Of a DNA stretch of 26,380 bases, positions 1 through 4,287 are shown one piece after another. The notes under the pieces were generated by a model. The model did not search any database, was not told the DNA's origin, and worked only from the letters and a program-made list of their open reading frames with translations. A program made the translations under genes and the position numbers. Within the stretch, counting starts at the first letter, position 1, and each line of letters starts with the position of its first letter. The stretch lies in the IMG/VR virus record IMGVR_UViG_3300017747_001237, positions 1 through 26,380 of that record; one strand, 5' to 3'. The stretch is from a virus (taxonomy: Duplodnaviria > Caudoviricetes).

Positions 1-70
1 CCATGATGAGCCCAGCCCCAAGGGCAAGACGCCCGCCGATGGTGCCGAAAAAAGCAATCACGGAGATCAT
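1..70 (-). CDS. Partial membrane protein (5' end only), possibly i-spanin or holin of the lysis cassette
   Basis: ATG at 70 overlaps the TGA of the upstream gene (ATGA, 67-70). Translates MISVIAFFGTIGGRLALGAGLIM..., hydrophobic, and runs off the window edge. Confidence 0.55.
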   Translation of the reverse strand, partial: MISVIAFFGTIGGRLALGAGLIM

Positions 71-1662
71 AGCGGCGGCTCCTGCTGCTGAGCGAGGGAC
101 GCAGCGCCAGCCGCAACAGGAGGCAATAAGCCGTACTTGCGGAGGATTTCTATCAGCTTGTCGTCGAAGACGACGTAGTTACGAGACCCCTGCCCAGCAG
201 CGCGAGAGCCTTGGTCTAGGTATTTGATGCCGGGGATGCCTGCTTCGCGGAGGGCTGATGTATCGCCTGAACCGACCCGCTGATTGCCGGCGGTGTTCCA
301 TCCCGAAACGGCGCCATAAGCTGATTTCCCGGTCAGTTTTTCGCCTGCCGTGTCGTTAAAAAACTCAGCCTGTCGCCTCACTGCAGGATGTTGCAACAAG
401 GCACGTACGTTCTCACTCTGCTGTGCTAGCGGCTTATCCCAGTCTAGGAACGTCTCCGGGTCAGCGTTTATCTTGACCTCGTACATGCGGCCGGGTTCGC
501 CTTTACGAAGTGCCTGCAAAATTGCGACATCATACGGGGGTAACTCGTAATTTAGCCCTGCGTCTCGCAACGATCTGACACGGGAAAGCGCTTTGCTCTC
601 AAACTTTTGAAGAGCCTTTTTCCAATCGCCTCCTGCAAGATCAACAAGCGTTTGCGCAATTTGATCAGTTCCGCCGTCTGCACGGCTTAGGTTCTGCCTA
701 TAGTTCCTCGCTACTCCCTCCGCTTCCGCAAAATACAGCCCGCGCCCATAAGCCTGGGCACCTTCGCCCGTACCAATTTTGTTGATGTCGAATTTGTCGA
801 AGTCATGCGGGCTGCCGTGGTAGGCGCGGATGCCTTGGGGCTTCTGGGCGTATGTCGGGATTTCGCGGTTGGGATATAAATTCGGCTCATACCCGGTCTG
901 GGCCAGATCTCTTGTCTTCAGCAGTGCGTCGCGATCACGCTTGGCCCAAAATGCAACGGCATTGTCTGATAGCTGGTTCCAAGGTGAAGGAACAAGTTTG
1001 GTTTGCGGAAAGTCCCGCGCAATCATGTCGTAGACAGATGACCCCAGCCCCTGCCGTTGCAAATGGTCCGCGACCCGCGCGTTGGTGACTTCAATGCCGC
1101 CGTTCTGGCCTGGCTTGACTTGGAATTGCCCAAGGCCGTTGTACGTGTTATCGCCGCCGTAAACGGGCTTGCCAGCAGGCACCAAATCATACGTCACGCG
1201 ATCAAATCGCGGGTCAGCAACAACATCAAAGTCTCCGACGCGCCTGCCGTTTTTTGGAATAGCTGCGGTAAGGCTGTCCCACTGTTCAGGATCAATGCGC
1301 GGGGCTATTGAGCGATCATATCCGCCGCCAGAACCTTCTGGCGCGCGGGCGATTTGTGGGCGGCCCGGCAATCTGACACTAGGCGCGAAAAAATTTGCCA
1401 GGAATCCAGCTTTGTCCAGGGCATCAGCTGCAATCGGCTTGTCGTCAAACCACGATGGAGCGCGCGGCATCGGGACTTGGCTGTCCCGCTGTGACGGAAG
1501 CGTAAGGTCAGGCGTGGGGCTGTTGAGGTATTTCGACAACGCGCCGACTAGAGGCGATTGATTGATTGCGTCCGTGGCTCGCTGCGGTAGTAGGTGCTCA
1601 TACCACGTCTCCTTCCGAGGCGCGGCCCATTCAGGGCGGGCGTAGTTGTTGAGTGTCGTCAA
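67..1662 (-). CDS. Polyvalent-type protein: GNAT acetyltransferase-like domain plus ADP-ribosyltransferase-like (ART-PolyVal-type) domain
   Basis: Probable TTG start at 1662 overlaps the endolysin stop (TTGA); the ORF-track start at 1734 lies inside the endolysin. GNAT acetyl-CoA motif V-x2-HLQRQGLGS-x-VY and S-x2-A-x2-FW. ART-like motifs AYHGSPHDFDKF, GxGLYFAE-x3-VA-x2-Y, G-x-MYEV and NYVVFD. Confidence 0.75.
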   Translation of the reverse strand: MTTLNNYARPEWAAPRKETWYEHLLPQRATDAINQSPLVGALSKYLNSPTPDLTLPSQRDSQVPMPRAPSWFDDKPIAADALDKAGFLANFFAPSVRLPGRPQIARAPEGSGGGYDRSIAPRIDPEQWDSLTAAIPKNGRRVGDFDVVADPRFDRVTYDLVPAGKPVYGGDNTYNGLGQFQVKPGQNGGIEVTNARVADHLQRQGLGSSVYDMIARDFPQTKLVPSPWNQLSDNAVAFWAKRDRDALLKTRDLAQTGYEPNLYPNREIPTYAQKPQGIRAYHGSPHDFDKFDINKIGTGEGAQAYGRGLYFAEAEGVARNYRQNLSRADGGTDQIAQTLVDLAGGDWKKALQKFESKALSRVRSLRDAGLNYELPPYDVAILQALRKGEPGRMYEVKINADPETFLDWDKPLAQQSENVRALLQHPAVRRQAEFFNDTAGEKLTGKSAYGAVSGWNTAGNQRVGSGDTSALREAGIPGIKYLDQGSRAAGQGSRNYVVFDDKLIEILRKYGLLPPVAAGAASLAQQQEPPL

Positions 1663-2441
1663 GCGCGCCTCCGTTGCCAGTAGGGGAGCCCGTGAGCCAA
1701 AATGAGATACAGACCGCCAGCGCCGACAGACCAAGGCCAGTTAGTGAGCGCCCATGTGGCGAGGTCTTTGCCTTGTTCTGCTACGCCCTTCCAAGCAGTC
1801 AAAGATGAGAGGTCAGGCGGGGCTTGAATGGCCGTCACAGCGCCACCGCTGCCGACTGTGGCCACGCCGCCGACCTTGGCCAGCGCTTCGCCTGTCGTCA
1901 TTTTTGACGTTGGCGCTTCGATCTTCTGAGGCATGGCGTCAACTGGGGCGGACTCAAGGAATAACTCGGTTTCCGCCGCGCGACGCGACACAAGCCCAGC
2001 CAGAGCAACGCTGGTCCCGTCCGCCACCTTGTAAAGGCGGGCCGTGCTGCCGCGCACACGCGCATACTTGAAGTCAGAGAAATGCGAGGCTGCCCGCGCG
2101 TAATCGCCAGCGTTTAGATGCTTAAGAAGTTTCGACTTTTTGAGATTTCCGACGCCGATGTTGTAGCAAAGGCTTACGAGAGCGTCGAACTGCCCTTGTG
2201 TGAGCGGGACCGTCACCAGTTTGTGAACATTGGCCTCATGCGCGCCCATCTCCTTGCGTAACGCGTCCTCGGCTTCCTCTCGCGTCCAGTGAGTGTTTGC
2301 CGTTATCCCCTCTGTGCATCCGTACCCCACCGTCCAGACCCCGGCCGGACACAAGTACGCTTTACACGAACCATCTTTTTGTTTCTGGTGATAACCCTCA
2401 ACGTTTCGGATTAAGTCCAGACCCTTTTCGCTCATTTTCAT
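1659..2441 (-). CDS. Endolysin, GH24 phage lysozyme with C-terminal hydrophobic segments
   Basis: SEKGLDLIRNVEG (Glu15), AYLCPAGVWTVGYG, VTVPLTQGQFDALVSLCYNIG, GLVSRRAAETELF. The C-terminal region is Gly/Ala-rich and hydrophobic and ends YWQRRRA. GGGGA RBS upstream. Confidence 0.95.
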   Translation of the reverse strand: MKMSEKGLDLIRNVEGYHQKQKDGSCKAYLCPAGVWTVGYGCTEGITANTHWTREEAEDALRKEMGAHEANVHKLVTVPLTQGQFDALVSLCYNIGVGNLKKSKLLKHLNAGDYARAASHFSDFKYARVRGSTARLYKVADGTSVALAGLVSRRAAETELFLESAPVDAMPQKIEAPTSKMTTGEALAKVGGVATVGSGGAVTAIQAPPDLSSLTAWKGVAEQGKDLATWALTNWPWSVGAGGLYLILAHGLPYWQRRRA

Positions 2442-2479
2442 GCTACAGATTCCCCGCGCATATTTTTACAGGGTGACGC

Positions 2480-3019
2480 ATGGAGCAATGGAAAGAAGTC
2501 GATTGGATCACGGGCTACAAGGGTGTGCTTGATGTATCCAGCCATGGCCGCATCAGGCGGCGGGCCTACACCTACGAAACGACCGGACGATGGGGAACGC
2601 CGCACATTGCTTCTAAGCCAGACAAGATATTGTCTCCGTCGAATGAGTCTCATGGATACGATGTCATTGCAGTCCAAATCGAGGGGCGAAGAAAAAAGTT
2701 TTTGGTTCACAGACTTGTCGGGCGAGCGTTCGTTCCGGGCTACGAAAAGGGGCTCACCATCAACCACATCAACGGGGTCAAGACAGACAATCGCCCCGAA
2801 AACCTTGAATGGGTGACGCTCGCCATCAACACCAAAAAGCAATGGGAAACTGGCCTTGTTGCCGGCACCAGAAAGAAGTTGACCAGCGGCAAAGTCCGCA
2901 TCATCCGAGAAGCTCTTTTGCTCGGCCTGTCCGCTTATAAGTTGTCGATACTCTGCGACGTTGATCCGACGCTCATCTACGGCATCAAGCGCGGGTCCCG
3001 GTGGAAATCGTCCGACTGA
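2480..3019 (+). CDS. Free-standing NUMOD4-HNH homing endonuclease with C-terminal HTH-like domain
   Basis: NUMOD4-like WKEVDWITGYKG..VSSHGRIR; HNH_3-like VHRLVGRAF...INHINGVKTDNRPENLEWVT..N; C-terminal KLT...V..IR...I..IKRG..WK. AGGGTG RBS. The only credible plus-strand gene in the window. Confidence 0.93.
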   Translation: MEQWKEVDWITGYKGVLDVSSHGRIRRRAYTYETTGRWGTPHIASKPDKILSPSNESHGYDVIAVQIEGRRKKFLVHRLVGRAFVPGYEKGLTINHINGVKTDNRPENLEWVTLAINTKKQWETGLVAGTRKKLTSGKVRIIREALLLGLSAYKLSILCDVDPTLIYGIKRGSRWKSSD

Positions 3020-3067
3020 TCCCTCTTGGGACTTGATGAGGGCTAGGCCTTTTTCGCTGAGCTTCAC
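3020..3067 (-). pseudogene. 16-codon remnant of the endolysin 5' end (MKLSEKGLALIKSQEG)
   Basis: 11/16 aa and 29/48 nt identical to the first 16 codons of the endolysin (2394-2441). GTG start overlaps the upstream stop (GTGA, 3064-3067). Similarity ends exactly at the HNH stop codon. Confidence 0.85.
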
Positions 3068-3528
3068 GGCTGCACCTCGACGCGGCCGAGGGCTGTCTGC
3101 TCGATCTCAACAATGCGAGATTGCATGGCCTGCATTTGCTCTGCCAATTCCAGCAGAGCTTGCGCTAAAGCGCCTGTGTTTTGGTTGTCCATTGGTGCGG
3201 GCAATGCCTGTTGAGTTGCACGCGTGACCAATGCCGGCAACATATCACGAACCGCTGCCACAACGAGCGGCGTGACCTCGACAGTTGTCGGAGATTGCAC
3301 GATTTGCGTGACCTGTTGCGCCTGGTCCACGCGGGCGTAAATATCCCAGCTTGCGCCATTGCTCACAGCGAGAGACGGGCGCGGGTTGCCGTCGCGCCGG
3401 TCGTTGATGAGGATAATGCTTCCGGTGCAGGTCACGGGATCGGGAAGCCGCGCCGGCTCGTAGACCGGGATGCGCAGCGGCTTCAAGACCGTGGCAACGC
3501 TGCCGCCGTCTTCGATGATGCGCGCCAT
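3064..3528 (-). CDS. Tail-fibre-associated protein, possible chaperone
   Basis: ATG at 3528 with GGGG upstream. N-terminal IPVY...LP....G..I.I.D......LA.SNG.SW module resembles those in phage fibre proteins. C-terminal coiled coil LAQALLELAEQMQAMQSRIVEIE. Confidence 0.6.
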   Translation of the reverse strand: MARIIEDGGSVATVLKPLRIPVYEPARLPDPVTCTGSIILINDRRDGNPRPSLAVSNGASWDIYARVDQAQQVTQIVQSPTTVEVTPLVVAAVRDMLPALVTRATQQALPAPMDNQNTGALAQALLELAEQMQAMQSRIVEIEQTALGRVEVQP

Positions 3529-3603
3529 GTCATGACCCCGCAAAAATCACGCCACACATTGGCACAGCGGGCGATTCACGCCGGTGTTTCTGGAACTCTG
3601 GTC

Positions 3604-4287
3604 TCATCTGAGAGACACAAAGCAGGCCGACCCCGCCGTTTGAAATGTCGGATTGACCGTTATGGTTGTTGAACCTGTTGTTGAGAACGTCGTGTCTCCG
3701 CCCGTGTGGGGCAAAACGCTCGCCTCGGTGTCGATGTCATAGCGTTCGGTCGCGTTGGTGGCGGAGTGCGTTGGCAGGCCCCCGGAATAGTAAGTGTAAG
3801 CAACATAAATTCCGACACCGCCCGCAGTGTGTGACAAGCTGCCGGATGTGTACGGGGCAACGGTCTGACTTGTGGCGGTGGCAACAGGCGTTGATGATTG
3901 CAGATCGTAGACAGCCCACACGCCGATACCGGAACGCGCGCATGTTGCCGAGTACGTGACAACGATGTCTGCTGTGGTGCCTGTGTCTACCTGTATGATG
4001 TAGAGCGCCGTGCGCTGGTTCGCGCCGCCGCCAGATCCTTCGTCGGTGCAGAGCTGCGTCGCCGCGTTGCCGCCAACGGTGACGCTCGTTACCGACACCG
4101 TTCCGCCCCTACCGCCAGCCACGCCGATGACAATTTGTCGGCCTGTCGCCGCCGTGCCGATTGATTGGCTCGAAAAGGTGTATGTCGATGCGTCAGTCGC
4201 CGACTGCGCGTTCGTGCAAAACGAACGCGACGCCACCGTATTGCTGGAAACAGCCGACGCGATCAAAGATGCAAATGATGGTCCCAT
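3604..4287 (-). CDS. Beta-rich tail-fibre tip/adhesin-like protein
   Basis: Start MGPSFASL at 4287 is coupled to the fibre stop (TAATG). Ser/Thr/Gly-rich with beta-strand patterning. Confidence 0.65.
   Translation of the reverse strand: MGPSFASLIASAVSSNTVASRSFCTNAQSATDASTYTFSSQSIGTAATGRQIVIGVAGGRGGTVSVTSVTVGGNAATQLCTDEGSGGGANQRTALYIIQVDTGTTADIVVTYSATCARSGIGVWAVYDLQSSTPVATATSQTVAPYTSGSLSHTAGGVGIYVAYTYYSGGLPTHSATNATERYDIDTEASVLPHTGGDTTFSTTGSTTITVNPTFQTAGSACFVSLR

Follow-up and report, generated by a model that had tools for sequence, protein, structure and literature searches.

In fungal mitochondria, endonuclease open reading frames that carry a foreign C-terminus for their host gene displace the native one, with cases described for Allomyces atp6 and for Glomus atp6, atp9, cox2 and nad3 (PMC3630166, PMC4019555, in the sections available to us). 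In these accounts the 3′ end of the gene is replaced, the endonucleases are of the LAGLIDADG or GIY-YIG type, and some of them lie in phase with the host gene. T4-like phages carry free-standing endonucleases (segF/56, segG/32 and mobE/nrdB) that sit outside introns and inteins and convert the recipient allele to that of the donor, and in intronless homing and marker exclusion the target lies in a neighbouring conserved gene, distant from the insertion (PMC2988022, available portion). The T4 endonuclease genes are intergenic and, with the exception of segD, have the orientation of the genes around them, and embedded promoters keep the downstream genes on (PMC2988022, same portion). Endonuclease genes are also found unspliced within a host coding sequence, as for mobE in Aeh1 nrdA and mobA in the T4 topoisomerase, where both halves of the split gene are made and reassemble (PMC2988022, same portion). 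Finally, synthetic home-and-rescue drives, engineered with Cas9 in Drosophila, cut an essential gene and carry a rescuing copy (PMC7968924, accessible text), and serve here as an analogy only.

Here we analysed a lysin locus in a stretch of 26,380 nucleotides of virus DNA (IMG/VR record IMGVR_UViG_3300017747_001237, hereafter the window), together with related loci. Like the fungal mitochondrial frames, the phage cassette combines an intron-less endonuclease with a duplicated gene terminus and a hybrid host gene, and the displaced native copy is nearer to empty relatives than the inserted copy. In contrast to them, the replacement affects the 5′ end or the entire gene, the endonuclease is an HNH enzyme encoded on the opposite strand, the setting is a phage genome, and the back strand of the endonuclease gene forms an open bridge; the cassette works like the fungal mitochondrial kind and is not a member of it. 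With the T4-like free-standing endonucleases it shares the lack of an intron or intein, the proposed conversion of the recipient allele, and a putative target at a distance from the insertion, while the available portion of PMC2988022 makes no mention of remnants or of a back-strand relay in those systems. Unlike in the split genes, a complete lysin follows downstream and the upstream piece is redundant. Our main reading, to which we assign a probability of roughly two in three (0.68), is that the HNH genes of this clade, which stand backwards before lysin genes, encode free-standing homing endonucleases that would cut near the W-T-x-G-x-G codons of the lysin and bring a diverged 5′ end with them, and that their back strand would relay ribosomes to the new start.

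The locus begins with a gene of unknown function (3064..3543, minus strand) without a Pfam or PHROG match, whose homologs directly precede lysins in the relatives L045 (46% amino acid identity) and L047 (95%). Just before this gene, at about position 3545, the window is 37 nt shorter than L045, reflecting a deletion. The stop codon of the upstream gene overlaps the GTG of a lysin remnant (GTGA), in agreement with the coupling to the preceding gene stated in the original prediction. The remnant, 16 codons long (3020..3067, minus strand), abuts the stop codon of the HNH gene with 0 bp between them. The HNH gene itself (2480..3019, plus strand) encodes an I-HmuI-like endonuclease of 179 residues and is separated by a 38-bp spacer (2442..2479) from an intact GH24 endolysin of 260 residues with the replacement 5′ end (1659..2441, minus strand; PF00959, E = 1.2e-36). 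The two copies of the lysin start, 3067-3020 in the remnant and 2441-2394 in the working gene, lie 626 bp apart (family D2) and share 29 of 48 nucleotides and 11 of 16 amino acids, with different codons at 7 of the 11 identical residues and A/T-ending codons numbering 5 in the remnant and 7 in the working start. All of the coordinates and counts given for the two copies in the original prediction were reproduced.

The lysin that follows the cassette is complete: its alignment with empty (HNH-free) alleles begins at residue 1, it shares 77% amino acid identity with that of L045, and it matches lysozymes in the PDB. Its C-terminal tail (1659-1900, minus strand), which is hydrophobic, Trp-rich and common to the L047 lysin, is possibly a membrane anchor. 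The gene after the lysin (67-1572, minus strand) has a weak ADP-ribosyltransferase (ART-PolyVal) match below cut-off (E = 1.5e-6), and its L047 counterpart is shorter and differs in the middle. Within the spacer, a purine-rich stretch (2455-2451, minus strand) precedes the lysin ATG, and a weak extended -10-like motif (2441-2449, plus strand), which by eye fits only the loosest form of the pattern, faces the HNH gene. A promoter consensus scan of 2200-3700 returned 0 sites, and 18 of 55 clade spacers contained a hand-made extended -10 pattern, where 1.3 would be expected. The motif often lies only a few bases 5′ of the HNH start in clade spacers, a proximity that suggests leaderless transcripts, and it overlaps the lysin ATG in the window as well as in L002, L003, L061 and L133.

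The HNH product matches PF13392 (E = 2.9e-12) and PHROG 59 (E = 2.7e-33), and its residues 46-129 match PDB entry 1u3e (E = 7.8e-12; entry title 'HNH homing endonuclease'), which we take to be I-HmuI. The HNH domain match is common to the I-HmuI family; the NUMOD4 signal is weak here (20.8 bits, with a cut-off of 23.4), and I-HmuI is intron-encoded (PMC2988022, available portion). Compared with its relatives, the window protein has a linker after the nuclease domain that is 5 residues shorter and lacks a conserved motif; it is alone in this among 52 measurable clade proteins, the other 51 having the longer linker, and the loss of 15 nt preserves both reading frames. The copy in the window may be damaged and no longer active, and may represent a nuclease in decay with a bridge that is still required.

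A profile of the HNH C-terminal region, which is clade-specific, recovered 95 distinct loci, of which 58 were kept as the clade at a score cut of 63 that was chosen after the table was seen. L065, which is without a divergent lysin, was removed, and L259 (score 59) fell under the cut despite having a remnant and a divergent lysin; 33 of the 37 non-clade HNH loci served as controls. Among the 58 distinct clade loci, 55 have a divergent GH24-like lysin, two a GH108 lysin and one is truncated, and the clade is a lysin specialist (57 of 58 loci with a divergent lysin). Counting duplicates and the window, 35 of 37 loci with HNH homologs of at least 115 bits have a lysozyme gene head to head, and below 115 bits only L035 has a lysozyme gene, which lies about 2 kb off in the same orientation. 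The bacterial genome collection contained zero clade members, and in 50,697 records of cultured phages the best HNH matches reached only 36% over the full length, with none close. At L065 and L141, related HNH genes overlap a further gene 3′ end to 3′ end, presumably a peptidase-type endolysin from its look, and the back-strand frame of L065 is open.

Several comparisons support the remnant as the recipient's old lysin start. Three empty alleles are available in the lysin family of the window (L045, L266 and L268), and the HNH is therein optional. The intact lysins of L045 and L266 share 39 and 40 of 48 nucleotides with the remnant versus 31 and 30 with the working start, and their starts overlap the upstream stop; L268 is neutral, with 32 and 31, respectively. 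The claim that the remnant is the original sequence, and the expectation that HNH-free relatives would have a remnant-like coupled lysin start, are both borne out by L045 and L266. On a profile of the lysin N-terminus the remnant scores 45.7 bits, with a maximum of 5.1 among 596 null windows. Over the 16 residues compared, 61 of 119 lysin homologs are nearer to the remnant and 10 nearer to the working start, with 48 ties. In run X1, a low-depth contig agrees with the remnant over 40 nt and then continues into lysin sequence without interruption, next to a different upstream gene.

Among the relatives, no empty allele was found in which the near-identical upstream gene is combined with a GH24 start of the remnant type. 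The near-identical upstream gene occurs in L047 and in contigs of runs X3, X7 and X9, where it is followed by a lysin with a different catalytic domain and the same tail. In these sister phages the locus has undergone a catalytic-domain swap (L047:3462-4382; joint 1834-3064 in X3, X7 and X9) ahead of the same C-terminal tail. The swapped N-terminal domain has no Pfam match at E 0.001, and we take it to be GH19-like in the L047-type lysin.

The frame of the remnant does not end at the junction, a feature that the original prediction overlooked. It remains open for 209 codons (2438..3067, minus strand; read from 3067 to 2438) through the remnant, the HNH back strand and the spacer, and closes in an ATGA overlap with the lysin start. 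For the window alone, the chance of such a frame is P = 0.02-0.08, and a chance by-product was first favoured on this basis and then overturned by the clade data. Of the 58 clade loci, 26 have an open HNH back-strand frame, where 3.1 would be expected from local codon usage; 2 of 33 other HNH genes do so as well. After reduction to a single locus per 70% cluster and exclusion of the window, the count is 10-13 of 28 versus 1.8 expected. The remaining two back-strand frames are stop-free in just 3 and 0 of the 58 loci. Openness follows the presence of an in-frame old start: two or fewer stops are found in 26 of 32 loci with such a start versus 7 of 26 others (P = 5e-5, with loci that are not independent), and the association has a median P of 0.006 at the cluster level. 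The HNH codons CTA and TCA occur at 9/363 and 17/246 in loci with an in-frame start versus 43/269 and 59/238 without one. A general avoidance of A-ending or TA codons was rejected as the cause, as GTA, CCA, ACA, GCA, CGA and GGA are used at similar levels whether or not the old start is in frame. Taken at the level of sequence comparison, the back strand is shown to be selected to stay open.

The open frame is likely a translational relay to the new lysin start. With a range of -16..+13 nt that was set after the data were seen, and using the nearest start candidate, 23 of 25 frames have their stop within range of the new lysin start, versus 6.0 expected from shuffles; 16 of the 25 stops lie at most 10 nt from the new start and six, including that of the window, are exact overlaps. 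Translational coupling needs a distance below about 20 nt and is lost beyond it (PMC10666635, accessible text). The best surviving alternative, which we consider unlikely, accepts homing and replacement and holds that the frame is kept for a useful protein, or only for shielding the transcript against termination, with no re-initiation at the lysin start. It would account for the length of a frame that is selected to be open (about 170-205 codons in the clade, 209 in the window) and for the 19 of 25 stops that are not exact overlaps. However, stops cluster at the new start more tightly than shielding alone would require, and a functional back-strand protein finds no support: the 209-codon product has no family match in Pfam or PHROG, and peptide identity and four-fold-site mismatch do not differ between open-open and closed-closed pairs matched for HNH identity, so that there is no conservation beyond what the HNH gene forces. 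Shielding of the transcript may contribute alongside the relay. The frame is closed in 32 of the 58 loci, with stops in 12 of the 32 loci that have an in-frame start, and the relay is therefore not obligatory; closed-frame loci, more than half of the total, presumably rely on their own initiation signals. Conversely, six open loci have no in-frame start by the rule used. The restart of the lysin from its own ribosome binding site, as first proposed, agrees with the purine-rich stretch in the spacer, yet the open frame suggests that the lysin stays coupled and does not depend solely on that site.

Remnants above the null maximum were found at 10 of 58 clade loci, in 6 clusters at 70% HNH identity, and three further remnants were recognized by eye in L056, L208 and L241, whose flanks resemble their own downstream lysin; the anticipated HNH homologues flanked by duplicated lysin starts do exist. 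Remnants range from 1-3 codons to 25 codons. Many clade loci retain only 1-3 codons after the upstream stop, which fits the second lysin family, where 63 of 64 empty lysins begin with an xTGA overlap. The long remnants end at Glu+1 (window), +2 (L241), +5, +6, +7 and +10, and others end before the Glu. Two loci extend the linkage to GH108 lysins: at L260:641-1120 the clade HNH is linked to a GH108 lysin, and at L131:221-766 a GH24 remnant stands ahead of an unrelated GH108 lysin, indicating that a non-homologous lysin replaced the original one. At L130:429-458 (minus strand), the remnant beside the closest relative of the window HNH (68%) resembles the replacement start of the window, and the contig stops before the lysin; this likeness suggests successive rounds of invasion.

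These junctions bear on the target. In the window lysin we take Glu15 and Thr37 to be the catalytic residues of the GH24 fold; they are conserved in 100% and 97% of the 119 homologs and align with solved lysozymes. A second alternative, somewhat less probable than the useful-protein or shielding account, holds that the catalytic Glu codon is both the target and the insertion point, that the lysin restarts only from its new ribosome binding site and that the open frame is incidental. The junctions at Glu+1 and Glu+2, the purine-rich stretch before the new ATG, the chance level of the frame in the window alone and the closed frames of other loci would all be in line with it. Against it, junctions scatter from codon 1-3 to Glu+10, so that the left junction is not fixed at the catalytic Glu and a fixed junction there was rejected; the codons around the Glu show no excess divergence; and clade openness far exceeds expectation and tracks in-frame starts.

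We compared linked (HNH-associated) and empty alleles of the second lysin family, 27 and 64 in number; to gather the empty ones, 6 of the 64 parts of the collection were searched with a pattern spanning codons 24-32, and the best 80 were kept. In the 12 closest linked alleles versus the nearest empty ones, excess nucleotide mismatch is concentrated in codons 1-12 and 25-42 (ratios 1.5-2.15) and peaks at codons 31-36 (2.15), while codons 13-24 have ratios of 1.0-1.1 and the region past codon 42 ratios of 0.7-1.2, save one interval at 1.4. The sequence WTIGYG is carried by 51 of the 64 empty alleles and by none of the 27 linked alleles, the latter showing 15 different variants; 13 of the 64 empty alleles deviate as well. 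His35 is present in 62 of 64 empty versus 2 of 12 close linked alleles, and Tyr33 in 54 of 64 versus 1 of 12; these two positions, 33 and 35, give the strongest signal and are not covered by the pattern with which the empty alleles were collected. Seven linked-empty sister pairs share 57-76% of nucleotides in the 5′ end and 76-86% in the body, compared with 71-95% and 79-91% in 11 empty-empty sister pairs, all chosen by eye on a quick lysin-body tree of 129 columns. At the sequence level, the 5′ end of linked alleles is thus shown to be foreign and altered at the motif, in agreement with the original proposal that the element brings a diverged 5′ end. The same proposal placed the target at the catalytic Glu, and here the data depart from it, as the divergence peaks instead at the W-T-x-G-x-G-H codons.

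The W-T-x-G-x-G codons of HNH-free lysins are likely the candidate target. In the window lysin the motif reads W-T-V-G-Y-G (codons 36-41; 2319..2336, minus strand), in the region where linked and empty alleles differ most, versus W-T-C-G-W-G in the empty alleles L045, L266 and L268; the C and W occur in 80% and 75% of the 119 homologs in this family. W-T-C-G-W-G is the empty type in the family of the window and a linked type (3 of 27) in the second family, which, together with the deviating empty alleles, argues against a single shared target. W-T-V-G-W-G is found in five empty and three linked alleles.

A third alternative, a little less probable again, is that the HNH is a gene kept by the phage, for example as a weapon against the lysins of co-infecting phages or as a lysis regulator, and that it was spread by ordinary recombination. 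The strict linkage to a lysis gene and the likely own promoter in the spacer would suit such a role, and cutting the lysin of a rival would leave the same escape signature. Opposed to this are the rare and patchy occurrence of the clade HNH, which occupies 1 of 68 and 0 of 71 lysin loci that had 700 nt or more of upstream sequence (11 of 102 lysins, unlinked and with less than 700 nt upstream, were dropped), and the repeated scars within the lysins of recipients. Moreover, linked alleles, with their foreign 5′ ends, are interspersed among empty ones on the lysin-body tree, with 11 changes, at least seven of them forced. A weapon role and homing are compatible and not mutually exclusive.

The structure of the locus was confirmed by contigs from other assemblies. 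Contigs with 0 differences cover the cassette in run X1 (1765-3324) and run X3 (1746-3181), which come from two studies, and runs X2 and X4, from the same study as X1, cover it with 3 and 6 differences; one of runs X1-X4 may be the source sample of the window. Misassembly was rejected on the strength of the identical contigs from two studies. Rfam gave zero matches at E<=1 in 1500-4000, and a group I intron was rejected on this null together with the 0 and 38 bp outside the HNH frame, which leave no space for a ribozyme core; the HNH gene, on the opposite strand and ahead of a complete lysin, lies outside any intron or intein, as had been claimed. Although HNH endonucleases of the same family are found in phage group I introns (PMC2988022, available portion), a cryptic self-splicing intron that joins the remnant to the lysin, or a duplication that is an assembly artefact of two copies only 60% identical, is highly improbable in light of these results.

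The homing reading can be laid out as a sequence of steps. The HNH would first nick the empty allele about 30-40 codons into the lysin gene. Judging from the anatomy of the loci, repair would then be homologous on the lysin side, or the whole lysin would be replaced, and the other side would join at a variable point upstream of the cut, leaving 1-25 old codons, 16 of them in the window. One-sided illegitimate repair has been described for a T4 intron (PMC2988022, available portion). The first approximately 40 codons of the donor, foreign in sequence and different at the motif, would confer resistance to cutting. Where the old start is in frame, the HNH gene has been selected to avoid TTA, CTA and TCA, and the frame stops at the new start; ribosomes arriving from the upstream gene would read the remnant and the back strand, produce a throw-away peptide and re-initiate on the lysin. 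Coupling would thereby be kept and polarity avoided.

The arrangement had been presented in the original prediction as another route by which a homing endonuclease avoids damage. This stands in part: the replacement principle was already known from fungal mitochondria (PMC3630166, available sections), and the phage 5′ form with its relay is unmatched in the literature searched. A full-text search judged by titles and the beginnings of abstracts, with few subscription papers, returned no case of 5′ replacement of a phage lysin or of a back-strand relay, and term searches of PMC10448857 and PMC12724721 returned no lysin or terminus-duplication case in the text accessible to them. The relay and the 5′ lysin replacement in phages are apparently new. 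We consider it somewhat better than an even chance that, besides self-splicing introns and inteins, this represents a third way for a homing endonuclease to occupy an essential gene under translational coupling without much cost, in which a resistant replacement start or a whole non-homologous lysin is combined with a codon-tuned, stop-free bridge, and in which a lysin-specialist clade promotes the exchange of alleles and of lysin families (GH24 to GH108) among freshwater phages.

If true, these findings would add to the biology of homing endonucleases a strategy of harm avoidance that is written in synonymous codon choice. They would also offer a statistically supported reason for long antisense frames without a useful product, in which translation, and not the product, is selected. 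A candidate target motif would be named for a whole clade of uncultured nucleases, and the clade would be a possible driver of hybrid and swapped endolysin genes, with relevance to the phylogeny and annotation of lysins.
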